This document shows, piece after piece, positions 2,275 to 62,429 of a stretch of DNA of 64,000 bases (position 1 is the stretch's first letter; the number at the start of each line of letters is the position of its first letter). The position numbers and the translations under genes were made by a program. The DNA is from Eledone cirrhosa (Eukaryota), in the NCBI GenBank assembly GCA_964016885.1, contig OZ024744.1, positions 14,074,001 through 14,138,000 on the forward strand, written 5' to 3'. Under the pieces are notes generated by a model. That model saw nothing but the letters and a program-made list of their open reading frames with translations, had not been told where the DNA came from and ran no database searches.

Positions 2275-2464
2275 CAAATAAATCCCATCTTTTGTACTGT
2301 TGACCATGTTATTCTCCACTTTTTCTATTTTATATATATATATATATATTAATAAGAGGAATTCCAACTTTGTCTGATTTACTCGTTTTATTTACAATCC
2401 TTTAAAATTTATAATGGTATTATAATGAAATAGTATGATAGAATATTAAATTGTAAGTGTTAAT

Positions 2465-2502
2465 TGAACAAGTACTTTCATGTTTTCGCAATCTTCAGGT
2501 TC
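2465..2502 (-). ncRNA. Minimal hammerhead ribozyme (inverted pLTR copy)
   Basis: Reverse complement of the 6379-6416 motif. Confidence 0.8.
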
Positions 2503-3787
2503 GAAATTATCAACACTTATCACGATGATTGACACACAATCCTCTATTTTAAAGGAAATAGAAAAACAATCTACAGACGGAAAACTTATAACTGAACATA
2601 TAAACTCTGAAATTAAGAATTTAGCTGAAATTATACCAACAGTTATCAAAGATACAAGAGAAAGCCTACCACAACCTCCTTGGATGTCAGAACTAAACGA
2701 AAGAAATTTGGAAAACAAAACACATCGAATAAGAAAAGAAATGTGGAAGACATGGAAAAAATTCCTTAACATAAGAAAACAAAACTTCTGGAAAGCATAC
2801 AAATGCGAAAAATATGTCGAAACACATTCGAAATGGCTCTCTCTAACGGCACCCATACTCCCTCGTAAATACCTAATTACAGAAATTGCAGGAGAACCAG
2901 AAAAAGAAACAAAACTCCGATGGGAACTTACATTGACAAAATTCAGGACCGACATCTCCATTTCTCAATGTAAACAATCCGGCTACAAAGCCAAATATGA
3001 AGCTATTGATGACCAAATTGAAGTTGAAATTTCAAAGCTAACGACTGGTATTATAGCTGAAAAACTACGAGAACTATGGATCAGAGATATCTCAAAAGAA
3101 GAAAACAAATCAAGAAAGGTATGGCAGCAGAAACAATTATTTCTCGACGAATATGCTGCAAATTACGGTAAAGACTCTGGAACCCTGAGAAAAAGCATTA
3201 AAAGTGGACAATCTCACCAACACAACATACGCCAGAACACGTGCCAACACAAACACTCACCTTACCTTGAATCAAAGAAGAACTACGGTAATAACTCTTC
3301 GCTTTTTCTACAAAAACACCCTATCGCACACAACATGAACAAAAAGCACAAACACGATAGATATTCTTTTGACCAGACCATGAGAAGTAGTAAAACCAGG
3401 AGATCATTCTCAAGATCTCAACAGAGACTACCAACAAGGAATGTGGAAACAAAACGTAGAATAACCAGATCACTCTCAAGATCTCAACAGAGATTGCCCA
3501 CAAGAAACTGGGCGAAAAAACGATCTAAACCTGAAAGCAAACCTAGGTCATTTCCCCAGATTGTTAAAAATAATGCTAACAGGAAAAATAATATACATAA
3601 TACCAAAAATAGGACAAAATACATAACGAAACCAAATATAATATCACGACCAAAAGTTCATCAAGCGAACACCAACAGGAATATAAATCCTGAACAGAGA
3701 AAAATCCATTTTTTAACGTCAGGACAACAAAAACCGGAAAAAGAAAAACTCCAGGAGGAAACATACCCAAAACAACTGTACACGTAG
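2503..3787 (+). CDS. PLE ORF1-like protein (helical N-half, basic low-complexity C-half); 5' end cut by the inverted pLTR
   Basis: Uninterrupted 435-aa ORF inside the element. It overlaps the RT frame, and a RSxSRSQQRLPTRN motif is duplicated at 66-bp spacing. Confidence 0.65.
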
Positions 3788-6002
3788 ATCCTAAAATAAT
3801 TAATTTATCTAAAAGAGATCTTGACAATGATGAAATGAAAATTCTGTCAAAAGGACTGAAATTCACACCGACTCCAACAGTCAACCACCAAGAACTGAAG
3901 GAGGATACCCAAGAATTCTGTCGAAAATTACGTCTTGTAGAATTCTTCGCTGATAAAAGTAATGAGAGTGATGAATCACTAGTAAAGAATAAATCAAATT
4001 TCACTCCGCCAAAAGGAAGAAATATCTATCTCGACCAATACATTGACATCCTGTCTAAATTTCCTCTTAGACGTAATACTAACAAATCAGAAATGTCTGC
4101 ACTTAAACGTATACAAAATGATAAAACAATAATAATTAAACAAGCAGATAAAGGGGGTGCAGTTGTTATAATGGATACTGAATACTACAAGGATTTGGTT
4201 GAGGAACAACTGAAAGACACAACATTCTATCATGAAATACCGTCAAATATAGACCACAACATCATGAAGAAGATCAACAACCTGGCTTCAAAATACCACA
4301 ACTCATTTACTGATAAGGAAAGAGACTACATCACCAATTTTGAGCCAAAACCCAGCAACCTGTATGGCCTACCGAAAGTTCATAAGTCAAAAGAAATACA
4401 ACTGGCAGTAAGAGAACAAAACAGTGAATACATTAAATTACTACACCCAAAAGAATTAAAACTTAGACCTATTATAGCTGGTCCAACATGCCCCACCCAC
4501 CGTCTAAGCAATTTTGTTGACATTATTTTGAAAGCACTATGTATTCACATACCCAGTTTCATCCGGGATGATATCGACTTCCTGTCCCATCTTCCCAAAA
4601 CCACGGAAACGAATTCACTTCTACTCAGTTTTGATGTGGTAAGCCTTTACACCAACATTTCACATGATTTAGGAATAAAGGCTGTTAAATACTGGGTGGA
4701 AAAACATAGAGAAGTGATTCCCATCAGATTCACAGCGCCATTTATATTAGACGCAGTTAAACTTATTCTGGAAAACAACACATTCTTCTTCAATGGAAAG
4801 AATTACATCCAAATTAGAGGCACAGCGATGGGAACGAAGTTTGCTCCCGTTTACGCGAACTCTGTAATAGGATACTTAGAACAACAACTCTACCAAGAAA
4901 TAGAGGAAAAATATAGTACTGACTTTAGAAAGTACATTGAAAAATCTTGGAAGAGATACCTTGACGACTGTTTCATCATCTGGACAGAATCTCTAGATAC
5001 CTGGATGAGTTCAATATCCTCCTTAATAACCTACACCCATCTCTCCAATTCACAAAAGAGATGAGTAGGACCAAATTACCATTCCTAGATATAATGATAA
5101 TCAAAAACGACACCACCATTACCACGGATATATATTATAAACACACAGACACCCATCAATATCTGAATTTTAAGTCGTGCCATCCACCTCATACAAAACG
5201 TAACATCCCATACTGCCTAGCCAGAATAATTTGTACCATTGTAGAAGATACGAATACCAGGTACAAACGCCTAACAGAACTAAGAGAATTTTTGCTGAAA
5301 CAAAAATACCCATCTCTACTTATAGAAAATGGCATAGAGCGGGCTATAAAAATACCTATACAACAACTTAGGACAACCCAAGGAAGAAGAAACCAAGAAC
5401 TAGTCATACCATTTATAATGACACACAACCCATGTCACCAGAATATCTTCAACACTGCCAAAGCAAACCTACCGATCATTGCTCAAGGTAATGAATTAAA
5501 AGGCTTAATCACAGACCGATCTTTGACTCTTAGTAAAAAACAGTCGAAAAATTTGAAGCAATTACTAACAAAAGCAAAGTTTGACCTTAACAACAAAGAC
5601 CAATCATTCACTGTATCTAAATGCAATGATAGTCGATGCGGCACATGTCAATCCATACACACCGGTCAATATATGAAAACAAAAAATGGAAAATATTCCC
5701 AAATACAAATATGAACTGCAAAAGCAGAAATCTAATTTACTGCATTAAATGCCCGAATTGTGAAGAACTATATGTCGGTCAAACTGGAAATGCACTATCG
5801 GAACGTGCACCGGTACACCGTCAGCAAATCAGAGACCCAAATGTCCGTCAGATACCCCTAAACAAACCATCTAGCAACATGTGGTCAGGGAATATTTATA
5901 ATATTCCCATTCTACAAATTACACAGCCCAAGTGAAATCAAGAGAAAAATCAAAGAAAAGAATTTTATTGATAAATTCAAACCCAAGCTAAATGAACAAT
6001 AA
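3709..6002 (+). pseudogene. PLE reverse transcriptase + Cys-rich linker + GIY-YIG endonuclease, with a few frameshifts
   Basis: Motifs IINLS..LSKGLKF, ADKGGAVV, LYGLPKVHK, LRPII, SFDVVSLYTNI, GTAMGT, RYLDD, LPFLD, CNDSRCGTC and NLIYCIKCPNCEELYVGQTG. Confidence 0.92.
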
Positions 6003-6377
6003 TAACGCTTAGGGGTATTACTTCTACTATGACTATGACTACGACCACTAACAACAACAACAACAACAACAACAACAATAACAACAACAATAATAATAAT
6101 AATAATAATAAAAGTGATTTTGATGGTGATGATTACTAGAAAATGCTATTTTCATCATTTCTAAAAATAGCAAAACAATTGATGCTTTGGATATGATTAA
6201 TTATTGGTCGTTAGACATGCTCAACCAGCTTTAGTAATTCAGTGAAACTACACACTGATTGGTCGAAATACAGTTTGCAAGATTTAGCATTCTGGAGCCA
6301 CTTTTCACTGTATATAAGGTAGAAAATTTACCCACCTCATTACAGTTGAAAATTGCAAACTTGACTGTCACCACATA

Positions 6378-6416
6378 TGAACCTGAAGATTGCGAAAACA
6401 TGAAAGTACTTGTTCA
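6378..6416 (+). ncRNA. Minimal type I hammerhead ribozyme in the PLE pLTR
   Basis: tgaac-CTGAAGA-t(tg cgaaaa ca)t-GAAA-GTAC-TT-gttca: 5-bp stem I and palindromic helix III. Confidence 0.85.
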
Positions 6417-6568
6417 ATTAACACTTAGAATTTAATATTCTATCATACTATTTCATTATAATACCATTATAAATTTTAAAGGATTGTAAATAAAACGAGT
6501 AAATCAGACAAAGTTGGAATTCCTCTTATTAATATAATCTTCTATACACAATCATACACACCCGTGTA

Positions 6569-6629
<61 letters not shown>

Positions 6630-7219: not shown

Positions 7220-8940
7220 TACCATTTCCTCAATGGCCAAGAAAACCCACACAGATAGATGGAACGGGTGGACCAGAGCCATACGGACCCCCGAAAACCA
7301 CGATGAACTAAAGAAAATGATTGCACATGCGGTGGGGGCTAGTATAAAATTAACCCTTAAGGAACATATGTTCAAATTTAATGGAAAAACATATGCCGAG
7401 GAGGAGGGAGCAGCCATTAGTGTTAGCATTGCAGGTGACATAGCTAACCTATTCATGGTATGGTGGGAGAATAGACTTAAACTTAAACTTAAAGAACAAT
7501 TAGAAGACAGCAACCTCATAACCCTGATAATGTACTCCCGCTACGTTGATGATATAAACATCGTAGTAAAAACACCCCCACTAGAGAACAGTTAGGAGGT
7601 AAAGAAAAACACCATGGAAAGCATCCAGCAAATAGCTAACTCCATCCACCAGAGTTACTATAGACTACCCAAGCAAACACCCCAACCATCGATTACCTGT
7701 ACTAGACACAGAGCTCTGGTTAGATACCATTAATAACAAAAAACAAATCCTCCATTCCCATTATGCCAAACCCATGACTTCCAAATATCTGATCCACCGA
7801 AACTCAGCTGTTTCGGACCATACCAAAATCAACATACTGATTGCGGATTTGGTACGGGTGATGAGAAACGTGTCCCGCATGTGCAACCTCAAAGAACTAG
7901 AGAGACACATACAACACTTCATCCACCGTATGCAGTTCTCTGGTTACAATCAGAGAGATAAAATCAGAGTATATAGAGGAGCCATAACCAAGTGGGAAAA
8001 AATGCTAAATAATGATACAAATGTATAGGAGCCAATTTTGGAATAAAATAGAAAGAACTAGGAATAAGGTTAATAGAATAAACTCATGGTATGATAGCAA
8101 TAAATACCAGAGTGTAATGTTCATCGATACAACCCCTAGAGGTGAATTAGCTTACAAATTTAGAAGGGCCCTAGATAAACATAAACTCAATATTAAGATA
8201 GTAGAAAGACCAGGTACCTCCATTAAAACACTTATTAGCAATACATACCCTTTTCAAAGACCTCCCTGTATAGATAAGAAATGTATAATCTGTAAACTAA
8301 GCCCTATATTAACTGTAAAACTAGAAATGTAGTATATAGCATAAGATGTACTGAAGGACAATGTAGAGATAAGAATATAGTGTACATAGGTGAGACAGCT
8401 CGTAGTATAGGGTAACGGATAAATGAACACTGGCGAGAGCTTCAACATATTAAAGAATCATCTGTACTCTACCAACATGCTAAAATATAACATAAGGGTA
8501 AATTAGAGAACATAGAAATAAAAATAGAATCTATACACAGAAAAGACGCAATGTTTAGACAAATCACAGAGACAATAAACATAAATGAACTCCGACCAAA
8601 ATTAAATAGAAAACATAAATGGAACAGCAACATCACAACTTACAATTAAGGACAAAATGAAAACACACACACACATAGAACAAACAACCAACCAGTAACA
8701 TGTAAATAAATAAATAAATAAACAAATATAAACACACACACAGACACCCGGATGTAACACATGCGCAAACTAAGCACACAGCACACACAAAAACAAGATG
8801 GCGTAGGACAGAACAAAGGAGAGGCACAAAAACAAAGAAAATAATCCCAGTCACTGAAGAGGTCACAGAATATGTGACGAAAGAAATTTGACAATATATG
8901 AACAATCGTCTGGTTGTGGAACCAACCAACCAACCGGAAA
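7220..8940 (+). mobile_element. 5'-truncated, decayed Penelope-like element (RT C-half + GIY-YIG), second family
   Basis: Motifs EGAAISVSIAGDIANLFM, YSRYVDDIN, LPVLDTELW, CIDKKCIIC and VVYSIRC..VYIGETAR, broken by stops and frameshifts. A hammerhead lies in the 3' region. Confidence 0.85.
8850..8892 (+). ncRNA. Minimal hammerhead ribozyme motif
   Basis: gtca-CTGAAGA-g-gtcaca gaata tgtgac-GAAA-gaaa-TT-tgac. Confidence 0.7.
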
Positions 8941-11004: not shown

Positions 11005-12955
11005 TACCCTACAGTAGGCGCACGTACACACACTGGCTCATATACACTCAAACAAATACGCACCTATTATCTACATGTCCACGTACATCTACAAAGATAC
11101 ATACATATATCTGTCCGTACTCAAATATGATATACTCACAGAGTCATATAAATCTACACAATGGGTCATACAGAGTCATCCATGAAAGGATGCATCTTGT
11201 TATACACATGCACAAATATAAATAATGTAACCAAATACATACATCCTTACACATACATGCATGTATACATACACACATATAAATAAATAAATAAGTAAAT
11301 AAATAAATAAATGTATATATATATATATACACATACATATATATATACACACACACATACACCTACACATATATATGTGTACATACACACACATACGTAC
11401 ACATCTATAAAAAAAAAACCTACAATATACTAAAATATACATATAACGACATACGTTAAAAGATGTATCTTGTACTAAACATGCACATATATAAACAGTG
11501 TAATCATATACATACATCCATACACATTCACATAACATATACATATATACCTCTCTACATACACACATATACACTATATATATACACATACGCGTACATA
11601 TATACACACATATAAAAAAATAAAATAAATATACAATATTAAAATATACATATAACGTCACAGAGATACATATATAAAAAAGAAGAAAGAAGAAGGGACG
11701 TGCGTATGATATAGTACATATGGGGAGTATGGGCCTGTATACGGGCCTGTATACGGAGCAAATAATATGTGTCCCAAAATGGAACACGTGGAGAGTATGT
11801 ATTCTCGATTGAAAAGGTACACATGCATGGGGATGCGTGGACCGGCCATATTGGAGTATGTCACTGTGGCTGAGGTGTGTTGTCCTATAGGTGTAAGATA
11901 TTTGATTGAAAGCCAGTGGAATCCGGGTCAACCTGTCCCGGCTCAGGCGATGTTCTTGCCTAGGGTGACGTGCAGAGTCGGGTATGCATCTTGGGTTATT
12001 TTGGTTTACTCCACGGGGCATATATTGTCATCAGGGTATGGTGTCTGATCTCTTGAACCCGTTCCGTCGCTCTGGTCGACGCGTGCTCCGACGCATGCCC
12101 ATAGCCTGGGCTTCCCGGTGGATTCCATGCGGAGAGTGTGCACCTTCTCTGGTGTCTGCACGCCATGATAATTTCCGATTTCAGGTTGACTGCATCATCC
12201 TTCAGTCTGACTATTTCCATGGCCTCGTATAGGCATAGGTTACACTTTCTACTTCCAGCCCAGTATGCATTCGCGTGCCGAACGGTACTCCAGTCAAGGG
12301 CGTACGAGGTGCCTTTGTCTTTCAAGTCCCACACCAGGTCCGCTAGCCTAGTGGAGTGCCTCTTACTGCGGTCCTTGGAGGAGTTCGTGTGGTTATACAT
12401 CCGCGATTTAAAGGTCGTGGATGTTGCGCCGATGTAGGTGCGCTTTATATTGTGGGTGCTAACCACACATTTATATACCAGGCCCTTCGTCAGAAATCTT
12501 CCCTGCAGGGGGCACTGGGTGCCCGCTCTGCAATTACATGTTCTGTCGTTATTTTGTTCACTTCGGACGCCTGGCCCTCGATCTGCTAGGGACCTCTCCC
12601 GATTCTCAGGGTGTTGTTCTGCCGGCACGATGCCCTCCCTCCCTCCTGGCGTTGGATTGTATCGCCTTCCGCGGGCGTGGCGGCTGCCGGGTTGTTGTTG
12701 GAAGGCGAGTCCCAGAGGGGTCCTCCACGCTCCGATGGACGGTCATTCTGCCGCCGCGGTTGACGGTCGAGCTGTCCCATCTTTACCGCGTTAGCTTTGG
12801 CCATGTAGTCGGCCATGTTAGGAGCTGTGGAGAAGGAAAACTTCACCGCGTGGCGGTTGAAAATCTTGTGGTATTTGTTCGACAGCGGGAAGCACTCGTC
12901 TAACGCTTGGAAAAAAAAGCCTGGCACGTTGCTGCATACATGCTTAGAGTATATA

Positions 12956-13005
<50 letters not shown>

Positions 13006-13628
13006 CATTTATTTATTTTTTTATTTATTTATTTATTTATATGTGTGTATGTATACATGCATGTATGTGTAAGGATGTATGTATTTGGTTACATTGTTTA
13101 TATTTGTGCATGTGTATAACAAGATGCATCCTTTCATGGATGACTCTGTATGACCCATTGTGTAGATTTATATGACTCTGTGAGTATGTCATATTTGAGT
13201 ACGGACAGATATATGTATGTATATATGTATGTATGTATCCAATGATGTTGACTTGTTCTTCTTTTTGGTAAATAACATCTTGGTTAAGAGAGTGGGACTG
13301 GCTTTGTGCAGTGCCTTTGCTCACTATAAAAGCTTCACGGTACAGGCATTGCTTTATATCTGGAGATCTCTCTGCACTTGTCGTCACATGGTACCATGGG
13401 CCCAGCACTATGTGTCAATAATTGTCACAAGTGTAGTGTTTGTACCAGAGTTTTCAAGTCGCTGGCTGGACTAAAAAGTCACACTCGTTCAGCTCATCGG
13501 TAGGGCTCTCCTACATGGATATAAAGTAGTGGCCGTACTCGAAAACGAGTTGGCAGCCACCATGTATCTTTGTAGATGTACGTGAGCATGCAGGTAATAG
13601 GCGCGTATTTGTTTGAGTGTATATGAGC

Positions 13629-19639: not shown

Positions 19640-21399
19640 TGGAATGAAAACATTCTTCCCTCTTCCGCACCCCGTTACAATGGTGACCTCAATCAAGTGG
19701 GTGTCAGTGACTTGACGACCATGCGAGTACCGTTGCACTGCTTTGGTGGACGCAAGTTCCTTATTAGCATAATGGGACAGCCAACCCTAAGCTTAATAAT
19801 GTGAGGTGGGAGCCCTGGGGGCTTAAGGAGATTTAATAACTCAACTGGATAATTAACGATATCGTCGGGGTCTGATTTGAAGATGTGCTCTTTACCGGGA
19901 ATCATCTCAATCAGCTGCTCGTTAATAAAATTAACCATGGTATTTTTCGGAGCAAGGATCGCTCTTTCGTTGAGCCAATCGAGGTTTTTAAAGTTAGATG
20001 AGACATTAGGAAAAACTGCTTCCCAAAGGTCAGAAGGGCTGCTCACAATGTTGTACAGGGTGTCGATTGCTATGCCGCCCTTGTCATCCGCAGGGATCTT
20101 GCCCTCACCAAGTGCTAAAATGTTCTGTGCTGCAGACATGTTGTCACCATGCAAATGAGCACGCACATTTGTGCTCAGGTACAAACTATTCACCTGGAGC
20201 CACAACATGGACGACTTAAGACAGGCACGCACTTCATCAGCTCTTGTCCATTTTGGGATGACAGGCAGCGTTTTCCGAAAATCCCCTGATAGCAGAAGAG
20301 TTACGCCACACATAGGAGCCGTAGAATCCCTAATGTCTTTCCGGGCCTTGTCCAATAATCAAGGGCACCCTTGTGTGCCATTGTGCACTCATCCCAAACA
20401 ATGAGGCAACATCTTTTGAGAACCATAGCTTTGTGTGAACTCTTGCTGATATTGCATGTTGGTGTCTCAGTTTTTACTAAACCCAAAGGGAGTTTAAAGG
20501 TTGAATGTGCTGTCCTGCCTCCCGGCAGCAAAGTAGCAGCGATCCCGGACGATGCAACGGACAACGCAACTTTTTTCTCCTGACGAATCTTAGCGAGAAT
20601 CAAATTCGTTACAAAAGTTTTTCCGGTACCCCCAGGATCGTTTTTTATTGGGGGATCAGGGTTTTTTTTTTGACCTTGAGGTATAACCAGTCAGTAGTTC
20701 CTTCAAAGGCTCTGACGGTTCCGTAAGAGGGGGCAAGATGACCTTACCGTTTAAGCAGCACATTGCAGGTAGTTCCCCAGCCCACTTTGTAGCATTGCAG
20801 AATTGGCAATTGAAGCGCATCTCGCCTATATTTATGTCAGAGCGCATCGAGTAATTAACGTTTTGCTCATACTTGAAAGCCCGTAGGTGCCAGTAAGGGC
20901 TGTTGGGGCTCGTCACACCGCGTGAAGCTTCTCGCCGTCGACTGTTACGCTTGAACGTAGAACATTGGTCGTGTGGTTGGTGGGAAGGTCTGGCAGCAAT
21001 AGCAGAAGCAACATTTTCAATGCTAATGGACCGCCCGTCTGCATCTTCAGAAGCCATGGAAGTAGTCATAGCCGCAGCGTTCGTAGGAAGGCGAGCCGTC
21101 CGTTGTTTTAAACGTTCGAAAGACCTGGAAGCAGCATTAGTCGCATCGTTTCTAGCCAGGCGCTTCGACCTTTGTTCACGGCTCTCTGAAGCCCTGGAAG
21201 AAGCCTGGTATGAAGCCATTTTGGCTAGGCGTGCGGTGCGCTGTTGGAAACTTTCAGCGGCTCGACATTCTGCTGAACATAAGGCTGTCTGTGAAAGTCT
21301 TGAAGCATTTTCCTCAGAGGACTCGTTTGCTATAGTAGCCTTTTGCGCCACTGCTGACGCGGTATGTCGACTGAGGTGACTTCTCTATTTAGGTGGCAT
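19640..21399 (-). pseudogene. Helitron RepHel remnant: N-terminal Zn motif fused to a Pif1-type helicase; Rep domain missing
   Basis: MPPK*RSHLSR start and CQFCNATKWAGELPAMCCLNGK, then PGGTGKT, VASSGIAATLLPGGRTAHS, IVWDE, SGDFRKTLPV, RAILAPKN and CNGTR. Confidence 0.9.
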
Positions 21400-27079: not shown

Positions 27080-30000
27080 CTACAGGCTGATATAGAGAGA
27101 AGACCCATTCACTCTGGCCATTCTCCCTACTTTCACCCACCTTTCATAAAACTTGCTGGGGTAGAGCACCTCTCTCTCCATTCTGATCCTTCTTTTAAAA
27201 TGGTATTTGAAAAAGTGGACCAGTTGTTGGCCGGAGAGAAAGGTGTCTGACCTCAGCCCTTTCAGTCTTGTCCACCATACAACTTCTTTAGCCATGGCTA
27301 TCACACAGAGAAAGACCGCCTCTCCTTCGTTTTTGAAAGGGGGAGGCGGTTTGATCGTGACAATGGACTCGGTGGTCAACCGGATTGGTCCCACCCTCGA
27401 CAGTAGTCGTTCCACATAGCCCCACAGGTCAGCAATGCCTGGGCAGTGTACGAATGTGTGCGCAACGGTTTCGTCGTCATGCACGCATCTCGGACAGATC
27501 TTATTCAAAGGATCCCTACCCAGGCTCCCATGCCTGTGGAGTTTGTCTCGAACTGGTAGAGCCCCTCGGTAGCACTGCCAAGCCAGGGACTTTTGGAAGT
27601 TGTCCATCGGTCCAGGGCCAAACGTCCTACCGAACAGACTGGCCAGTTCATCATCCTCCATGCCTAGAGCTTCTCCAAGAGCATCGTCGCACCTGCTGCG
27701 TACCAACCCTCTATAGAATGTCGAGGTGGAGTCTCCACTGATTGCCGGGTCCGCTTTCCAGAGGGCCGTGAGCGCCTGGGCACATTCAATGTGCCAGTGG
27801 CCCACTTTTCTCGGTCTTTGCTTGATCCAGGATTGCAGCTCGGTGAGCGAGATGAGTTTGGGAAAGGCTCGCCTCACAAACGGGGCCCACACCGGTTGAC
27901 CGGTGAGGAATACCTGGAGGTGCCGTAGCCTTAATGCGTGTTTACGCATCTGTAGCCACGGCATCCCCAGCCGCCCTTTCGAAGGGTGTTGACAGCAGAT
28001 GTATCTCCTCACCAAAGGGGTCCGCTTGTTCCAAAGAAATTGGAACAGCGCGCACTCCATTTTGGCAAGTCTTTTCACTGGTCAAGGCACGACAGTCAAG
28101 CGGTAGTAGATGACGGATGCTATATAAGCGTTCGCCACCTCTGCTCGACCTTTCAGGGATAGTTTGGACTGGGCCCACTTCTGGGCGAGTGCAAACACCC
28201 TGGCCGTTACCTCGTTCCAGTTTTTCTCCACCTGGAGGTCTGGTCCGAACCAGACCCCAAGCAGCTTCACCGGGCCCTCCGTCCAGCGTCCGACGACGTC
28301 GTTGGAGGGCATCGGTTTGCCTCTCCATGTTCCGAGTTGCAAACCGACGGACTTGTCCCAGTTCAGCTTGGCTCCTGTAAACCTTTCATATTCCTCCAGT
28401 AAAGTGCCGATCTCACGGATTTGCGAGGTTCTCGACACCATTACTGTCACGTCATCGGCGTACGCCTACGCCGCTTTCTGCAATCCCGGTTCCAAAGGGA
28501 TGCCCCGCAACCGCTCCAACTTCCGCAGTAGTGGCTCAAGAGCCAGCACATACAGAAGGGAGGAGAGAGGGCATCCCTGTCGGATGGATCGCATGATTTG
28601 GAACGGCTCCGAGAGGTGGCCGTTCACCTTGACCCTTGAGCAGACGTTACTGCTGTGCATCGCAGCAATCCAACCCCTGAAAACGGGTCCGAAGCCTGCC
28701 GCCGCGAGCACCGTATCCAGGTAACGATGGTCAACCCTATCGAAAGCTTTAGATTGATCCAAGTTGATCAGGGCCCCACCAAAGCCGGATTCATTCCCTA
28801 CCCTCTCTATGATGTATCGCATAAGGTGGAGATTGTCGTGAATGGACCTGGACGGGATTGCGCATGTCTGCGCTTCTCCCACCAGGTTTCCGACGACAAG
28901 CGCCAACCTCTTCGCTAACACCTTGGCCAAAATCTTTAACTCTGCATTTAGCAGAGTTATGGGCCTGAAGTTGCATATGTCATCCCCCTTGTTCTCGTCC
29001 TTCCTCGCCAGCGTAACTACGCCCTTGGTCACAGAACTGGGAATTCTCCCGTTCTGCTGCCAGTTGCAGTAGACCGCTTCGAGGATATCGGAGAACAAGT
29101 CCGGCATCGCTACATATAGCTCGTATGGTAGACCATCGAGACCCGGGGATTTGCGTTTGCCGTATTGGCTCAGCGCCGCCCCTATCTCAGCAGCTGAAAT
29201 CGGCCTTTCGCAGGATCGCCTCCCTGTCCGAGAGGCGCGGCAGACCGTCGAGGTATGGATTGAAATCCATAGTCTCACCCGGCGCACCGCCCCTCCCGAA
29301 CAGTCGTGTAAAGTGCCGATGAAAGGTCGCACACATCTGCCCAGGTTCAAGGATCACACGCCCATCCTGGTCCTTCAAAGACCGAATCGTGGACTTGTTC
29401 CCACTTTTTGCCTCTGCCACTCGGGCCCAGCTAACAGCTTTGGCTCCCTCATTACCCAGAGCACGTATTTTACTCCTGACAACGCAGCACTCGTGCTTCA
29501 CATCAAAGAACTGGTCTAAGGCCATTCTTGATGCCAGCACGCTGGCTAAATTGCCACTCCTAATCGCCTCTTCTACTCTATCTACTAATTCCCTTTCCGT
29601 CTTATTCCTATCCCGTGCTCATTCCTGACTAAAACATATCGATTCTATTCTAATTGCTCTCTTAAGAGAGCTCCACCACCTGTTGTTGACAATTGCCCCT
29701 GTCAAACTCTGCTTAACTAACATGCTAATCCGTTTACTGTAAGCTTTGCTTGTCGGTAAGGACAAGTTCAGCTTCCAGTAACCGGGTTCCTGTCTATGAG
29801 TTCTATCAAGGTTGGCTATGCAGGTCACTAACTTGTGATCCGAATAGTCAACCATGAACATTTTTGGACAGCTAAATGTGTCCCTATCCTTCTCTCTAAC
29901 TAGGACCCTATCTAGGTACGACCTAGATGTTCCGCTGCGATTGGTCCACGTCCATAGTGGTACAGTCGGAAAATCTAGTCGATATCTATCGGCCAGGTCA

Positions 30001-30515
30001 AATCGGCCGATTAACCTTTTGAGGCTTTTACACCCCCCTCTATTGGCACATGCCCCTACATAGTCCCAACTTGCATCCAGGATACCATTCCAGTCCCCCA
30101 CTAAAAGCAAGGAGCGGGACGTTCCCAGAAAAGTTTCCAGACGTTGGAAGTATTCCGGCCGTGCTGCCCAAAAAGGGGCGTACACAGCAATTAGTCTAAG
30201 GGCTCCACTTTCACTACTGCCGACGTCTAAAACCACCAGTCGACCCTCCGGGTCCAGGTGCACCTTCTGTATGGCGAGGCCCAGGTGTTTTCGCAGCAGA
30301 ACGACAACTCCATCCCCACCCCCCGGTTGACAGAGAGATGCGAAGATCTCAAAGTCGTCGAAGAGGGGCGCCAGTTGGTGCTCGCTGCTGATCCTGGACT
30401 CGCAAATAGCCATTACATCCATTCTATGCGACCTGAGATCGTTTAAAAGTTTGCCTTGTTTCCAAGACAGTCCCAGGCCGCGTACATTCAGACACCCAAC
30501 TCTTATATCAGCCAT
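27080..30515 (-). pseudogene. Tx1 ORF2: APE endonuclease + RT + C-terminal Cys motif
   Basis: CLNVRGL, GDWN, SYLDRV, YSDH, KSPGLDG, FRPITLLN, DQSKAFDRV, RQGCPLS, YADD and CPRC..ETVAHTFVHC; a few stops and frameshifts. Confidence 0.93.
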
Positions 30516-30536
30516 GTTGGTTAAAAGAGGAAGGAC

Positions 30537-32275
30537 CTACCTGTTCGGCTCCTGAGGAGCAGGTTGCACAATATCCATGGGCGTATTGGAGGGGTTGTTT
30601 GGTGGGGTGTTGTTCTGTGGCGGAGTGTGGGTGTTTGGTGAGGTGTGGGTGGGGAAACGTTTCAAGAGGACGCGGTTATAGGGTCGAGTACATGTTTCCC
30701 CCACGTCCTCAGGAAAGTTCTCTCTTAGTTTTGCATAGGTGTCCATTGGGAGTCTTATCATTTTTAAATGCAGTTTGTTGGCCGCGCTTGCAAGGAATTG
30801 CCCTTCAGTTTCCACCGAAGGGTCTTTGTGTACTGTTTTTACTAGTTCTTTGTTATTTGTGTTAATGTATGTATACTGTTTTATTTGTGTTGTGTTTGTT
30901 TGTTGTTCTTGTGTGTGCTTAAGTTTTGTTGTATGTGTTATGTTTTGGGGTGGGGCGGATTTTGTTTGTTCTGTTTGTTTTGTTTTTGTTGGTGGTTGTG
31001 TGTTTGTTTCGTTTATGTTCGAGTGGTGCTTTCTTTTTTCCTTTTTACAGGTTGGAAGGGTCCCCCCTCTTCGTCACTAGGTGCCGTTTCAGCTGGGTCC
31101 TCGTCCGTGCTGTCGGGTAGTGGTGTATTTTGGGGTTTTGTTGTGTTTGTGTGTGTTTTTGGACTTGTTTTGGGTGGGGCCGTGTCTTCTGTTATTTTTC
31201 CGTGTTGTTTTTGTTGTTGTTGTGGTGGTGGTGGTGGTGGTGGAGGTGGTGGTGGTGGCGGTGGTGGTGTGTGGGGTGTAGGCAAAAGAGCCTTTTTTTT
31301 GTCAATTGAGGACAGGCAGCCCTTAGATGACCCCTGCTTGAACAGTAGTAACATATGGGCCTCCTACCCTCGGCTGAAATATATATAAATGTTTCTCCAT
31401 CGAGGGACACCCTCTGTGGTATTCTAGCTATTCGTTCTGGTCTCATTTGGACCAGAACCCCCACGCTCAAACCACCGAAAACGTCTGTTGTGACTTCTCC
31501 TACTGAGAGGATTCCGTCCTCGTCTTCTAAAAATCCTGTTAGTACCCAGGAAATGCATGCATTTGGCCGGATTCCGGAGACCCTTATTTTCTGCGTTCTT
31601 TTCCCTAAATATGTGGGGAAAAATGTGTGTAGCTTGGAAACAATTGGTGCCACAGAGTATTTCCTGGCCGTCAATTGATCCTTCATAAGCACCGTTATAT
31701 TCCCATAGAGTGGCCCTTTTTGTATGAACGATATATCACTCCACACATTTTTTAGGACCAGCTCAATTTCATTTTGGGATAATTGAGTTGGTTTCCTTGT
31801 TATGTTGGAAATTGTTCTGAAAGATATCGTTCTTAGTGTCGTGTCTCTTTTGATTTCTTGTGGGGAGGTGATTGTGAAGTCTCCTCCTTCTTTGAAAGTT
31901 ACATACTGTTTTGCTTCCTTCATCTTTTCTCTCAGAGTTGTAATGTCCAGTTGCTTGCAGGTCTGTGTTTTTTTAGACCGCCTGTGCAAAGGAGGCACCA
32001 GTAGTGGGTTCGCTTTGTTTGGTGTTATCGTTATTTTTTCCTTGGTTGGTGTTGTGACTATTGCTGTTATTGTCGTTGTTGTTTTTGTCTGCGTTTATGT
32101 GACTTTCTGGGTTTTCACCCATTTTTACAAATTTTTCTTTTAATTCCGTGTTCCATGTTTCTTTTGCAGAAGTGAGGAGGGAAGACTTAGAGCCTTGTGC
32201 TTCTAGCTTCTCTGTATCACCTTTCTTAGGGGGCGTGGCTTTCACGTTAGGATGAGATGTGAAAATTCCGTCCAT
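30537..32275 (-). pseudogene. Tx1 ORF1 (RRM-like region, CCHC zinc knuckle, Pro/Thr/Asn-rich tracts)
   Basis: EGRRPICYYCSSRGHLRAAC; frameshifted. Confidence 0.8.
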
Positions 32276-40477: not shown

Positions 40478-43400
40478 TTCTTGGAACGTCACGCTCTTTA
40501 GTGTTAGTGGGTGACTGGAACGGTATAGATGCACGCTGGGATTATGTGGGGCTAGTAGACAGGGCAGGAGGGTGTAAAAGCCTCACCAACCAGCTCAGAC
40601 GTTTTGAACTGTCTGACAGGTATAGACTGGATTATCCGAAAGTGCCAATGTAGACATGGGCAAACCTCATCGGGTCATCCAGATCGTATTTAGATAGGGT
40701 ATTCTGTAGGGAAACAAATAAGGCTAGTGTAAGTTGTCCACATTTGTGATCTGTGAAGTTTACTTAGATAGACTCCATAGGCAAGGGCCCGGCTACTGGA
40801 AGCTGAACGCGTCGTTCCAGGCGCGCAAAGCTTACAGAGACCTGGTGGTGGTTTACCGTGAAAAGGGCTATTAGAGTAGAATCGATAAGGTTTAGCAAAG
40901 GAGTAGTGATAGAGAAAAATAGAGTAGAGGGAGAGTTAGAAAGCTAGAAGAGGTGTTTAGGACAAGCATCGCAACAGACGTTCTTGCGGCGAGATTGGCA
41001 CTCGACCAAATCTTCAAAGCAAAGCATGAAGGCTGCGTTGTCAGAGCTAGAGCGCTTGCCTTAAGACACGAGGGGACGAAAGCCCTTCAATGGGCCTGGG
41101 TGAGGAGGCGCGACGTGGCAACAAGTCCACAATTCGGTCTTTGCCTGATCAAAACGGGTGCATGCTGCTCGAACCCGAGCAGATGTGTGCGGCTTTTCAA
41201 CAGCACTTTGCTCAATTGTTCGGGACCGGCGGCGGGCCGTATCGGTGTATGGACTTCGGTGCATACCTCGAAGGACTGCCGTGGCTCTCGACGACCGCAG
41301 CGCAATGCTGCGAAAAGCCGATAACAGCAGGTGAAATATGGGGCGCAATGTCTGACTGCACGAGGGGTAAATCGCCAGGTTTGGATAGTCTACCCTACGA
41401 GCTTTATGCGTATATGCCAGACTTGTTCGGCGACATCTTGGCAGATGTCTACTGCAACTGGCAGCAGAAAGGGAGCATTCCCAGTTTTGTGAGCCGGCGT
41501 GCGGTGGCGCTTCTGAGAAAAGACCCGAACAAAGGGGACGTTATAGACAACTTCAGGCCCATAACTCTGCTTAACTCAGAGTATAAGATTTTGGCCAATG
41601 TGTTAGCAAAGAGATTGGCGCTTGTCGTCGGTGATCTGCTGGGAGAGGCACAGACACGCGCCATTCCGGACAGATCCATCAACGACAACCTCCATCTTAT
41701 GCGATACATCATAGAGAAGGTGGTTAAGGAACCTGACACGGGTGGGGCCCTGATCAACTTGGATCAATCTAAAGCATTTGATAGGGTCGACCATCGGTAC
41801 CTGGCTGCAGTCCTCTAGGCGGCCGGCTTGGGGCCCGTTTTTAGGGGCTGGATCGCTGCGATGCACAGCGACATCTGCTCGATTGTGAGGGTGAATCGTC
41901 ACCTGTCGCAGCCTTTCAGCATTATGCGCTCAGTCCGACAGGGTTTCCCCCTCTCGTCCCTCTTGTACGTACTGGCCCTCGAGCCGTTACTGCACAAATT
42001 GGAGACCATGAGGGGTGTCCCACGCGAACTGGGATGCGGGAGATCCGTATCAGCTTACGCCGACGACGTCACCATGGTGGTGTCGAGCACCTAACACGTC
42101 CAGATGTTCGGCACCGCTCTCAAGGAATACGAAACGGTGACGGGAGCAAAGATAAACCAGAATAAAGAAATGGGCCGAGAGGAGGCTGGCTCTGTAAGGT
42201 CGGGCGGAGGTGGCGAATGCGTACATAGGGTCCGTCATCTGCTACCGCCTGACCGTCGTACCTTGCCTACACCTTACTCTGATCAAAATGGAGCGCCTTC
42301 TCTTCCGCTTTTTGTGGAAGGGACGTGCTCCCATGATCAGACGATCCATTTGCTGTCAACACCCGTTGCTTGGAGGACTAGGCATACCGTGGCTGATGAT
42401 GCGCAAACATGCGCTGAGGCTGCGACATCTCTGGTGCTTCCTTGACGGTGAACCGGTGTGGTCGCCGTTTGCCAGACGCGCTTTTCCCCAGCTCGTTTCC
42501 TTGACGGAGCTGCAGTCCTGGATCAAGAAATGACCAAGGGATAGCGCTTGGAAGCTGGAATGTCTCCAAACGCTCTCCGCCCTCTACCAGCTGGGCACTA
42601 ATGTCGGTGGAACACCCACCCCTGCGTTCTATAGAGGGCTAGTGGAGGGAAAGAGCAATGACGTTCTCACGGAGACCCTGGGCGTCGAAGACGATCAGCA
42701 GTTCGTTCTCTTCAAGAGGACTTTTAGACCGGGTCCTATGGTCAACTTCCAGAAATCCCTGGCCTGGCAGTGCTACCGGGGAGTTTGCCGGTTCGGGATA
42801 AACTCTACAGGCACGAAGGTGCTGTCAGCTGAGCCTGTCCGAGATGCGCGCACGGCGACGTAACCGTCCTACACGCACTCGTTCAGTGCCCGAGGATTGC
42901 TGACTTGTGGACCTATGTCGAACAATTGCTGTCGCGTGTTGGACTGATCCGGTTATCGACTGAGTCCATTGTGCAGATAGCCCCGCCATCCTCCTTTAAG
43001 GAGGAGGAAGGGCAGGCAGTTTTCATCTGCCTGGTGGCCATGGCGAAAGAGATTGTGTGGTGGTCAAGGTTGAAAGGGTTGAAGGCGGACACTTTCCTCT
43101 CCAGCCGATCCCTGATTAACTTTTTCAAGTTTCACTTGAAGAGGAAAATCAGGGCGGAGAGGCAAGTGCTGTCTTCTAGTAAGTTTGTTGAAAGGTGGGT
43201 GAAACTGGCGAGTCTGGTCCGAATGAACGGGCCCGCTCTGAGTATACGCCTGTAGACTAAGGAGTGGGAAAAGTGAGAGAGGGCGCTTGCCCAGGTGGTC
43301 AGGGTGGCCGTGGTCTTTTGTGTGGTTTTCACCACGAGTGACCATCGGAGGTTTCCCACTTCTTGGGAAATTTTTGTTGTATGAAATTTTTTTAAATTTC

Positions 43401-44622
43401 TATCCCGATTTCTATCTTGTTATAACCTGTTTACACGACCAAAACCCACTTTGTATCGTCCTGTACTGTTCTGTACCGTCTGTAATGTTTTTCTCGTTCT
43501 GCACGCACTCGTCCAGTGTGCATGTATTACTGACTCGTGGAGTTATGTCGAACAGCTGTTGTCGCGTGTAGAACGGAACCGGCTATCGGCCGAGTCGATA
43601 GTGAAGATCGACCCGCCATCTTCCTTTGGCCAGGAAGGGCAGGCAATTTTCCTCTGTTTGGTAGCAGTAGCGAAAGAGGTTGTATGGTGGACGAGGTTGA
43701 AAGGACTGAAGACAGACATTTTTCTCTTCGGCCAATCTCTCATCAACTTCTTCAAGTTTCACCTGGAAAGGAAGGTGAGGGTGGAGAGAGAAGTGCTGCC
43801 CCTCAGTACATTTGCTGAAAGGTGGGTGAATGTGGCGAGAATGGCCCGTGTGAGTGGGCCTACTCTGGCCATGCGCCTGTAGGTGGGTAAATTTGAGGAG
43901 GAGAGGGGTGCCCTTCCAGGGTGCTCTCGAAGCGTCGGGTCGTTCAGGAATGGGGGGGGGTACCTGGGTGGTCATCCCCCCTATGGACTCAGTCGATAAT
44001 AATTATTATTATCGACTGAGTCCATTGTGCAGATGGTCTCGCCGTCTTCCTTCGAGGAGGAAGGGCAGGCGGTTTTCATCTGCCTGGTGGCCATGGCGAA
44101 AGAGATTGTGTGGTGGACAAGGTTGAAAGGGTTAAAGACAAACACTTTCCTCTTCGGCGAATCCCTAATTAACTTTTTCAAGTTTCACTTGAAGAGGAAA
44201 ATCAGGGGGGAGAGGCAAGTGCTGCCTTCTAGCAAGTTTGTTGAAAGGTGGGTGAATGTAGCGAGAATGGTCCGAGTGAACGGGACCGCTCTGAATATAC
44301 GTCTGTAGTTTGAGGAATGGGAAAAAATTGAGAGAAGGCGCTTGCCCTGGTGGTCAGGGTGACCGTGGTCTTTTGTGTGGTTTTCGCCACGAGTAACCGT
44401 CGGAGGTTTCCCCCCAATTGGGGAATTTTTTATTGTTTGAATTTTCATTTTTATTGTTTATATATATGTATATGTTTCTATGTCTTTTTTTTTCTTTTTC
44501 ATTTCTTATATAAATAATATAAATCTTTACACGCACAAAACCCACATCGTACCGTCCTGTACCGTGCTGTGCCGTCTGTAATGTTTTTCTTGATGTCAGC
44601 CCTTGTGGCCAATAAAGAAATC
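40478..44622 (+). mobile_element. 5'-truncated Tx1 LINE (copy D) followed by two extra stacked 3' ends (~43495-43980 and 44008-44622)
   Basis: APE and RT motifs; the C-terminal AKE(I/V)VWW..FFKFHL..ERWV block occurs three times; ends AATAAAGAAATC(ATT)n. Confidence 0.9.
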
Positions 44623-44663
44623 ATTATTATTATTATTATTAATATATTATTATTATTATTATT

Positions 44664-46853
44664 GTTCTCTGAGTCGCAGTCATTGATGTTAGTTAACTGG
44701 AAAGTTTGTTGAAATGTATATCAAGCTACTACCTGCAGCCTCAGATATTCAGGACGTATCGGAGGGTTCTTGCTGTTCCCTGCAAGCATGCCTTTTGAAG
44801 CTTTCCAAAAAGCGTGGCGGGGGCCAATTTTCTTTAACCATCCCTGGAAACTTTTTGAGATAGTACCTAGTGCGCCTATGACAATCGGGACCACTTTGAC
44901 TTCATGGCAGTTCCAAATCCTTTTTACCTCCCACTTTAAGTCCTGGTATCGGTTAATTTTGCACTCTCGTGTCGAATGGGCAGGCTACATCTACAATCAG
45001 GCACGATCTTTTTTCCTTGTCCAAAACCACCAGGTCAGGTCTATTGTGTTCCAGTTTCTTGTCCGTCTGTATCCTAAAATCCCACAGCACCTTCACCTGA
45101 TCGTTTTCTATCACCGACTCTGGCTTATGCTCATACCACTTCTCAGAATGTGGTAAATTGTTTACTTTGCATAGGTGCCAGTGGATCACCCTGCCCATCA
45201 CATCATGTCTCCAGCCCTTGTAGTGAGTCTGGGCTAGGTGTTTACACTCGGATACTCCAGCTGATGTTTTCCAGGACTTCATACTTTTGCCCAACAACTG
45301 TCTGATGTTATCTGCCACCTTGAAGATCTCTAGGCTTTTGGTGATCCAAGAATGAGGCACCATGTCAAATGCCTTTTTGTAGTCTATCCATACCATGGCA
45401 TTACCAGTGTGTCTCCTCTTGCAATTCCTCATTACCATCTTATCAATAAGTAACTGGTCCTTTGTACCACGGAACTTCTTTCGGCATCCTTTCTATTCGT
45501 CCGGTAACAAGTTGTTTGTGTGGAGGTGATGGTAGATTTCCTCAGACATAATGCTTGTCAACAGTTTCCACATTACGGACAGACATGTGATAGGTCTATA
45601 GTTTGTAACATCATTACCCTTGATTCGGTCTTTCATTACCAGAACTGTGGTACCTTTTGTCAACCACTCTGGTACCTCACCTGACATCAAGCAGTCATTG
45701 AACATGGTTGTCAGTTTCGGGTGGAGGGATGTTATATTTTTAATCCAATACCCCTGCACACCATCTGGGCCTGGTGATTTCCAGTTGGTTAGTTTTTTGG
45801 CCTGCCCCTTAAGAGTTTCAACTGTGATACTCAAATCAGTTTGTTGGTGTGCCTGTTCACTAATCTCCTTTTGTACTGTCTCAATCCACACTGACTGGTC
45901 ATTATGTTTAACATCCTGCTCCCATATTCCTCTCCAGAATATCTTAGTTTGTTCCGCCTCAGGGATCAAGTCGTTGCCTCTTTCTTTCCCTTCAAGCTGT
46001 CCAAACAGCATCTTCTGGTTGTTGTCAAACATGCGGTTCTGTCTATACTGACTGACTCTGCTCTCGTATCGCCTGATTTTTGCACTCTTTGCTACAATGC
46101 GTTGCTTCAGTTCCCCTATGATAATATTTAGCTTTTTCCTCCTAGTTTTGTACTTTATTTCTAGTCTATTTTTAGTGTCTATGTTTTTTACTGTCCCATT
46201 CAGTAGGGACTCAAGCTTTCCAATGTCATTTCTCATTTCCCTGATTTGACCATTCAGTCGTTTCTTCCACCAAGGCTCTGCTCTTTCTTGTTTGTTGTTT
46301 CCTCTCGCTTTTATACCAAGTAATTTCCTCGCCGTATTTGTTGTTGCTTTGAGGATATTGTTGCACTGGTGAAGGCTCCTCGCCTCAAGGTATGGGATGA
46401 CTTTGTTTACCTTAGCTGTTGTTTCTTTTAACTTTTTCCTGTCTACAAATCTTAGGTTCATAGGTTTCCCACTATCATTGTTCATTTCATCTAAGTTTAG
46501 GATATCAACCAAATCTTGTCCTAGCCCGTCATCATTCGTCTCCTCAATGGCCGTATCTTTGTTCCAGGTATTATTTATTTCAGCATTCAGATCATTGTCT
46601 GCTTCGGATGCTTCCTCCGTTCTCTCAACCTCTTTACCTTCATTTCCCACTGGCTCGTTTGCCTGGCATACTGCACTCTCCATTTCCAACCTAATCTCTC
46701 TGCTCAGTTCCTCCAGTTCCAGCTCGCTTATCCACCCATTAGTTCTTATTACCCGAGCCTGCCCGGCCAATTTTGTTCATCTAATTTAAATAGACCCATC
46801 TCGTTCCAGATGTTATGCATCCGTTTCCTATAGCCTTTTTCCTTGGGGGTTAC
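44664..46853 (-). mobile_element. R4/Dong LINE, 5'-truncated and internally deleted
   Basis: KSPGPDG, YRPITCL, DYKKAFD, RHD and RPDLVV..IVDVACP; flanked by (TAA)n; highly similar to 58466-62429. Confidence 0.88.
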
Positions 46854-46867
46854 TTATTATTATTATT

Positions 46868-52762: not shown

Positions 52763-52764
<2 letters not shown>
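46868..52764 (+). mobile_element. Full-length decayed Tx1 LINE (copy B): ORF1 ~47071-49051, ORF2 ~49087-52498
   Basis: Knuckle CFVCGE.THLRAFC; APE and RT motifs including RQGCPLS and YADD; bounded by (ATT)n on both sides. Confidence 0.9.
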
Positions 52765-52815
<51 letters not shown>

Positions 52816-61400: not shown

Positions 61401-62429
61401 TAGCCCGTCATCATTCATCTCCTCAATGGCCGTATCTCTGTTCCAGGTATTATTTATTTCAGCATTCAGATCATTGTCTGCTTCGGATGCTTCCGCCGTT
61501 CTCTCAACCTCTTCACCTTCATTTCCCACTCTCCATTTCCAACCTAATCTCTCTGCTCAGTTCCTCCAGTTCGAGCTCGCTTATCCACCCAATAGTTCTT
61601 ATTACCCGAGCCTGCCCGGCCAATTTTTGTTCATCTAATTTAAATAGACCAATCTCGTTCCAGATGTTATGCATCCGTTCCTGTAGCCTTTTTCCTTGGG
61701 GTTACTCTTCACGTAACATTGCATAACAGCTCTATTCATTTCTTTCGTCCAGTTGGTTCTGGACCCTTTCCTATTTCCTCTTCCTCCAACACCAGCAGTA
61801 TTTGGATGACAGCCAGGTCCCTGCTGCTGGGCCAGGGAGCACCTGCTGGGTGAGAGTCTGTCACATAACATTCCAGTCTCCACTTCACTGTTATTCGAAC
61901 TGTTTAGGTTCGACATTTAAGCACTGGTGAATGTATGGTTACATTGGTGAATGTATGGTTACATAACTACCGGTGATTTCATCACCCCGGTGATTTTAGC
62001 GTGGCACCCTCACGCTGTAGACGAACATAAATAAACAAACAAACAAATAGATACCCCCCCCCAAAAAAAAGAAACCCCACAAGTTTTATTGTAATGTTTG
62101 AATGTCTGACTTAGCTTTTCTTTCCTTTTTCTCTCTCCCTTTTTTTGTTTGTTTTTCTCCTTTGCGTTTTTCGTTTTACAAGGCCAGTAACATCGGTTAC
62201 TAGTGTTGCTGTTGCTGCTGCTGCTAAGGGAAGTAGGGGTTGTTGTGTTCAATACTTTAAAAACCCATGTCCGTTGTTGCGTTTGCCTCTGTCTCTGTTC
62301 TGTTCTATAATTTTTCGACTATAATTTTTTCTATAATTTTTTCCGCTTTCATCCCTACGTGGCCGACACCACAAAGCACCTGCAACACACCGTGACAATT
62401 GCTGACCCCGTGCCAAAAGCAGAAGCACT
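58466..62429 (-). mobile_element. Near full-length R4/Dong LINE (RT, CCHC, REL) in (TAA)n
   Basis: [61 protein letters not shown] and RPD; frameshifts present. Confidence 0.92.

Follow-up and report, generated by a model that had tools for sequence, protein, structure and literature searches.

The window analysed here, a stretch of 64,000 nucleotides from Eledone cirrhosa (G000:C28 of a 3.0-Gb animal genome), carries a Penelope-like element (PLE) in which the reverse transcriptase (RT) frame overlaps a separate upstream reading frame, ORF1, and in which the conserved beginning of the RT lies upstream of the first Met of its frame. This leads to the question of how the RT and its GIY-YIG endonuclease (EN) are translated. 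The original prediction was that ribosomes slip by -1 on the heptamer T TTT TTA near the end of ORF1, as in gag-pol expression. The positions that it gave for the TGA, the heptamer, the ORF1 stop and the ATG at 3835 were all correct (Table 1), and direct reading confirmed that the -1 frame is open for 40 codons up to this ATG, a stretch that includes IINLS. We put the probability at about 0.85 that U UUU UUA, close to the ORF1 end, is the site of a programmed -1 ribosomal frameshift that yields the RT-EN, a reading built on comparative sequence evidence. By this mechanism the majority of ribosomes would complete ORF1, so that its 449-aa product, helical, basic and probably RNA-binding, is abundant, whereas the minority that slip at the Phe/Leu codons would make an ORF1-RT-EN fusion of 1194 aa, the ratio of the two being set by the slip in the gag-pol style.

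Judged by its sequence, the element is a young two-ORF Neptune-type Penelope-like retrotransposon, of which the window holds a truncated and broken copy. This copy shares 97.7% identity with an intact one and lacks the first 20 codons of ORF1, and because of three further 1-nt indels relative to the intact copy (near 5000, 5689 and 5863), which break ORF2, it is unable to make the full RT-EN. The ORF1 of 435 aa that had been read from the window was an artefact, its first 7 codons coming from the inverted pLTR and the first 20 genuine codons being absent; in intact copies ORF1 has 449 aa. Pfam places RVT_1 at residues 292-432 and GIY-YIG at residues 680-766 of the 768-aa intact ORF2, and Neptune motifs, namely CPNC with two downstream His (CCHH), GLKF (GxKF) and DKG, were recognised by eye in the intact translation. 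The pLTR is present as seen from the repeat and from the comparison of copies, and a candidate hammerhead-like core was picked up by regular expression, with no match in Rfam; a minimal hammerhead architecture has been described for PLEs (PMC4209133). In the RT tree, which was built without named Neptune or Nematis references, the element falls in a distinct branch, and Neptune is itself paraphyletic in the portion of PMC8557442 consulted. Canonical EN+ PLEs are described there as single-ORF whereas the intact copies have two overlapping ORFs, and the element is therefore filed as a Neptune-type variant. The earlier label of Naiad-like was wrong, since the GIY-YIG domain is C-terminal and Pfam finds none in ORF1; the EN-minus groups Athena and Coprina were also rejected because GIY-YIG is present.

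Table 1. Positions of the features of the element in the window
Feature	Position	Strand	Basis or remark
Whole element	~2330-6570	+	Flanks are (TA)n tracts; inverted pLTR piece, ORF1, RT, CX4CxxC linker, C-terminal GIY-YIG, 3' pLTR
Inverted pLTR piece at the 5' truncation point	2330..2502	-	Inverted repeat with 6379-6551, 95%
Antisense hammerhead motif within the inverted pLTR piece	~2465-2502	-	Motif regex
ORF1, 5'-truncated in the window copy	2501..3787	+	Intact copies 449 aa
TGA shutting the RT frame just 5' of the slip site	3691..3693	+	Read directly; identical position in 30/30 copies
Slippery heptamer T TTT TTA, in-phase, predicted -1 shift site	3709..3715	+	ORF1 codons CAT TTT TTA
Dual-coding overlap: 23 ORF1 codons and TAG, RT linker in -1 frame	3716..3787	+	No significant RNA structure
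ORF1 stop TAG, 23 codons past the heptamer	3785-3787	+	Read directly
ORF2 (RT, linker, GIY-YIG), -1 frame	3715..6002	+	768 codons in intact copies
IINLS motif, start of the conserved PLE RT N-terminus	3796..3810	+	Upstream of the first Met (3835)
RT-EN linker motif CX4CxxC, CNDSRCGTC	5622..5648	+	Sequence reading; Neptune/Nematis feature according to a passage of PMC8557442
C-terminal GIY-YIG endonuclease, N-terminal part; CxxC between GIY and YIG halves	5732..5854	+	Pfam PF01541
3' pLTR, then (TC)n(TA)n	6003..6570	+	Sequence, comparison of copies
Candidate TATA-like box 6311-6318 and initiator-like TCATT 6337-6341	within 3' pLTR	+	Chosen by eye
Minimal type-I hammerhead-like motif, palindromic helix III	6378..6416	+	Visual reading and a regex for the core consensus; no match in Rfam

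One objection to a frameshift is that a copy-specific indel in the T-run broke an element that had a single ORF, and the three other 1-nt indels in the window copy and the frameshift-prone A-rich blocks described for Naiads would fit with this. When the best 30 of 1580 first-look candidates were compared, the window copy among them, the -1 offset was the same in all 30 and the heptamer was kept in 29, and in every one of them the ORF1 stop was 23 codons past the site and the RT frame was closed 7 codons before it. Among 24 junctions in 20 larger regions, the -1 frame ran on without a stop for 768 codons, as far as the endonuclease end, in 13, and both ORFs were whole, with an ORF1 of 449 aa, in 4. 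Genome-wide, the exact site precedes 256 of 301 exact downstream 30-mers, and the 16 inspected out of the 45 non-matching copies showed 10 substitutions, 3 small deletions and 3 truncation/inversion junctions. Across 3.58 kb of an intact copy, six consecutive T occur on the coding strand only at the heptamer, which speaks against a chance occurrence. The -1 offset is a family trait because it is common to the copies, including those in which both ORFs are whole. The copies are unfused save for single mutants, and the explanation by a copy-specific indel is refuted, since the offset is common to all 30 copies examined and also to distant families. Two single copies of sister families, L292 and L318 (G000:C3:109897594), have a 1-nt insertion in the overlap which fuses ORF1 with the RT, and L318 is open for 1289 codons.

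That one added base does fuse the frames in these single copies is also what can be said for slippage of RNA polymerase on the T-run, by which one U would be added and fused mRNAs would arise. Codon phase should not matter for such slippage, but here it is fixed, and the run is only six bases long while longer A-runs nearby are not conserved; we regard it as extremely improbable.

In three other families of this genome the in-phase heptamer and the -1 offset were also present, in 19 of 20 copies of family B, 13 of 19 copies of family C and the one copy seen of family D; families B and D were first found through a pattern that contains the heptamer and are biased in this respect, whereas family C was found by a protein search that is free of that bias. 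The heptamer-plus-INLS pattern gave 6908 real matches against 10296 control matches genome-wide and was used as a lead only. Loci outside this genome were gathered by RT motifs alone (59 and 76 loci, plus one further search), and nine, all with upstream DNA, were assigned to the lineage by the RT tree or by an ORF1 profile. An in-phase U-rich heptamer, always with the -1 offset, was found in eight of these nine, the junction of the ninth, L207, being ambiguous. It is TTTTTTA in L200, L201, L204, L206 and L208, TTTTTTG in L141 and L226, and TTATTTT in L279. In the RT tree (FastTree) nine frameshift rows fall in one branch together with L207 and L226, with a support of 100. In more distant elements, two families of this genome among them, the upstream sequence mostly continues in the RT frame, and a turtle RT query led to two other families with in-frame N-terminal extensions, which served as a control. 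Thus, alignment of other copies and relatives found the offset and the heptamer conserved in copies, sister families and outside loci, and this conservation strongly supports the gag-pol-like -1 frameshift that had been predicted. The heptamer part of a canonical -1 signal, an in-phase X XXY YYZ within the ORF overlap, is present and conserved.

A search of 380 genomes gave 7 more matches and no new junction, and a metagenome scan with a single protein gave no match. Among proteins of 1345-3840 aa there were 7 matches, which were host-gene chimeras or tandem RTs with zero ORF1-RT fusions, evidence that carries little weight. Queries with P0002 and P0052 within this genome recovered the same family. 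Some PLE contigs and proteins (L141-L199, P0017, P0021, P0083 and P0111) are filed as bacterial MAGs or symbiont genomes, for which host contamination is the most likely reason. In L279 (T TAT TTT), P0228, P0229, P0257 and P0272 the junction encodes x-F-[RH] and not x-F-L, perhaps a weaker or single-tRNA slip.

The site can also be followed at the protein level, as ORF1 has 351 homologues at E<=0.001 in a 50%-identity library. The tests were done on 152 proteins for which the N-terminal domain was the sole search criterion; 89 of them are long-tailed. Phe-Leu occurs in the last 45 aa of 67 of the 89 long-tailed homologues compared to 13 of 165 background windows, and the residue before it is never Q, K, E, M or W, none of which has a codon with U in third position (0 of 67 against 22% in the background; p 4e-8 if the rows are independent, as these statistics treat them, though the tree shows that they are not). 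The pattern FF[RS] expected in the other phase was found in none of the 89. As read from these sequences, the x-Phe-Leu ending is the protein trace of x-xU UUU UUA. A point against the frameshift is that Phe-Leu is absent in 22 of the 89, some of which may have been cut at contig ends.

The requirement for U before Phe-Leu and the fixed -1 offset are left unexplained if Phe-Leu is a mere protein motif and the RT is translated separately after ORF1 by reinitiation or internal initiation at the ATG at 3835 or at a near-cognate codon. An in-frame ATG does lie 47 nt past the ORF1 stop, a Met just ahead of IINLS is present in some relatives, and a killifish Neptune is annotated with two non-overlapping ORFs in the part of PMC12602865 consulted. 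However, a start at 3835 would drop the conserved IINLS, and families B, C and D have no common Met between the site and IINLS, so that this route to the RT is very improbable.

The main and serious rival is that the T-run is part of a 3' splice acceptor and that the RT comes from a spliced RNA in which its frame follows on from an upstream exon. Of the 11 first-tier DNA junctions, 8 have acceptor-like TTTTTTAG, a codon starting with G follows Phe-Leu in 47 of the 67 homologues, which again gives acceptor-like TTTTTTAG, and the first AG past the T-run was in one phase in all nine loci tested, this family and L141 included. PLEs hold spliceosomal introns that are retained in genomic copies (PMC3846280, PMC4209133), and because the copies keep their introns DNA is unable to exclude splicing; for the same reason the finding of a spliced joint in none of the 16 non-matching copies examined, of 45, is weak evidence against it. 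However, there is no G after Phe-Leu in 20 of the 67 homologues, the L279 site has no adjacent AG, and a right-phase donor scoring at least 5 of 7 was found in just one of nine ORF1s and in none of this family, by a crude score and with several ORF1s partial. In addition, the T-run is read by ORF1 in the same phase every time, for which an acceptor has no need. Contigs from four sequencing runs showed no joint at the junction, but their kind is unrecorded and this carries no weight for or against splicing or expression. We consider splicing improbable and the ribosomal frameshift the preferred reading.

If ribosomes do slip at the heptamer, the next question is what stimulates them. The weak downstream hairpin (ccgga/tccagg) that had been pointed out is no stronger than shuffles, with z of +0.45 for 3716-3790 and -0.46 for 3716-3830. 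In the family, folds 3' of the heptamer had z of 0.0 to +1.3 and a crude search, with long-range and protein-assisted folds outside its scope, found no H-type pseudoknot; in most relatives as well no hairpin or H-type pseudoknot stands out. The stimulator is thus likely not a stable hairpin or pseudoknot, and the efficiency of frameshifting may be low because no stimulatory structure was found in the family. The stimulus that we tentatively favour is the intrinsic slipperiness of the heptamer, boosted by ribosomes that queue up while another ends translation at the ORF1 stop.

The distance from the site to the ORF1 stop bears on such a queue. In none of the 67 homologues does the stop come less than 10 codons past the site (null 23-57%), and in 17 of them it comes exactly 10 codons past it, although their tails are unrelated in sequence and the tree requires 7 changes; a distance of at least 10 codons in all 67 is as expected if the terminating ribosome stimulates the slip. 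Related homologues have similar distances (a value as low was reached in 0 of 500 shuffles on the tree), and p-values calculated from them are therefore too small. The distance is 23 codons in this family, 20, 22 and 31 in the sister families, and 1, 10, 10, 12, 12, 17 and 19 in the outside DNA. There are peaks near 10, 20-23 and 30, and all the distances of 23 belong to one clade, so that a 10-codon periodicity is at most a possibility. In E. coli, -1 shifting in a trailing ribosome goes up when the one ahead is held at a stop, with a maximum at a 9-codon spacer; at the IS3 pseudoknot motif, frameshifting falls with ribosome load (PMC6815119, in the sections consulted). In those reporters the heptamer lies about one ribosome length before the stop, 9 codons as compared to a mode of 10 in this lineage; they are, however, engineered bacterial constructs, and this family has a distance of 23, to which the queue model is a poor fit. 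Because this 23 and the other distances of 12-31 are unexplained by single-ribosome spacing, the queue step stays a hypothesis. A boost of the intrinsic slipperiness by a termination queue is a tentative possibility for the lineage as a whole and an unlikely one for the Eledone cirrhosa family. The wider proposal, of a structure-free, termination-driven -1 frameshift in a widespread marine-invertebrate lineage of EN-bearing PLEs in which the stop is held at least 10 codons, or one ribosome length, away and the 23 codons represent a two-ribosome queue, is doubtful. If it were true, this would be natural eukaryotic collision-stimulated frameshifting and RT output would be tied to the translation load of ORF1. 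The 10-codon floor bears on whether a ribosome queue at a stop codon can be a natural stimulator of frameshifting in eukaryotes, and the Eledone cirrhosa family is not the cleanest example of it.

A motif like [DEQ]-[ET]-T-x-x-K was seen by eye 3-4 residues before the ORF1 stop, with Phe-Leu at a distance of 22-38 codons, in P0001, P0002, P0004, P0135, P0136, P0143, P0156, P0158, P0161, P0170, P0175, P0178 and P0206 and at 3764-3787 of the window; it could be a peptide that slows termination, or an RNA signal. In the clade with distances of 22-23 codons, conserved Gly (+3) and Pro (+7) codons are further candidates for an RNA or nascent-peptide signal.

Hairpins go with a near stop, being seen at the junctions of L204 (z -3.5) and of a separate GGGTTTT branch. 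This separate PLE branch (support 99) comprises the metagenome contigs L258, L261, L262, L265, L267, L271 and L273, with an in-phase G GGT TTT/C heptamer (e.g. L262:2662-2711), an ORF1 stop 0-2 codons further on and, in 5-6 of the 7, a hairpin of similar build 6-9 nt 3' of the heptamer. The profile built on ORF1 of the Neptune-type lineage finds no match in the ORF1 of this branch, whose junction resembles a second kind of frameshift, of the structure type and with the stop close by.

What the first protein does was approached by prediction. Residues 11-241 of ORF1 are predicted to form an N-terminal coiled coil and a three-helix bundle, followed by a disordered basic tail with 48 K+R and 10 D+E in 199 aa; AlphaFold2 gave a pLDDT of 90-99 at residues 81-240 and mostly below 50 in the tail. 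No family was found in Pfam, only coiled coils among the PDB sequences and nothing at E<=0.001 with Foldseek. The best VIA-align match (Z 9.1, rmsd 6.4, 124 aligned) was to a generic three-helix bundle, and in the Atlas search all scores were below 0.9, a PNMA/gag-like match at 0.81 being within the shuffle range. Structure prediction, which had been proposed for ORF1, thus yielded a helical model with no specific fold or family. From its composition and position, the ORF1 protein probably binds RNA and oligomerises in the manner of Gag or L1 ORF1p.

The closest parallels are other PLEs and HIV-1. The HIV-1 gag-pol frameshift uses a 3' stem-loop, whereas no comparable stem-loop is detectable here and ORF1 has no match to Gag. 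PLEs with a frameshift and a pseudoknot are presumably those of the Athena/Terminon type. The likeness to HIV-1 lies in the identical heptamer U_UUU_UUA, which the original prediction had named correctly as far as the text of PMC5009743 consulted goes, and in the order of a structural ORF followed by an enzyme ORF in the -1 frame. In SARS-CoV-2 a near stop, 5 codons away, helps the pseudoknot to refold (PMC8168617, in part), whereas this lineage avoids near stops, with the exception of L204 and its strong hairpin. A frameshifted ORF1 in PLEs is already in print, in that the legend to Fig. 1 of PMC8557442 describes a PLE 'ORF1 ... separated by a frameshift (#) with a pseudoknot'. As here, those elements have an ORF1 of the coiled-coil type upstream of the RT and joined to it by a frameshift; unlike them, the present element has an endonuclease and no detectable pseudoknot, though the clades meant in the legend may include Neptune. 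The Neptune group of PMC8557442 has a C-terminal EN as here, whereas here a separate 449-aa ORF1 lies in another frame, and the text of PMC6431247 consulted ties two ORFs to the absence of EN in PLEs. The killifish Neptune of PMC12602865 is reported without a frameshift in the portion consulted, and Neptune-like PLEs with esterases are mentioned in PMC5408684, also seen in part. The turtle-type single-ORF elements, which this genome also has, form a separate RT branch and carry their N-terminal extension in frame. In a literature search with the primary Athena/Terminon papers, Repbase and figures outside its scope, no slippery site in Neptune or EN+ PLEs was found beyond the legend of PMC8557442. 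The words 'slippery' and 'pseudoknot' are absent from one text supplement of that paper, its figure supplements lying outside the search, and a term search did not find 'frameshift' in the accessible text of PMC11167929, PMC5718144 and bioRxiv 10.64898/2026.07.22.740005.

A conserved ORF1 with a frameshift would mean that the annotated RT ORFs of this lineage miss their true N-terminus, and it would make an unnamed helical ORF1 family, with its 351 homologues at <50% identity, part of the transposition machinery.

The window contains other mobile DNA. GIY-YIG fragments of another PLE type, with a CxC..C..C prefix, are found at 19-432 and 11996-12742, and 11090-13229 has an inverted repeat at its bounds. 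A second, decayed PLE with RT and GIY-YIG remnants is inserted at 7230-8640 beside (TA)n/(TG)n. Motifs in the translations of 19693-21384, 27080-32094, 41051-57580, 45493-46776 and 58754-61556 belong to what we take to be pieces of Helitron-like helicases, several L1/Tx1-like copies and RTE/CR1-like non-LTR fragments.
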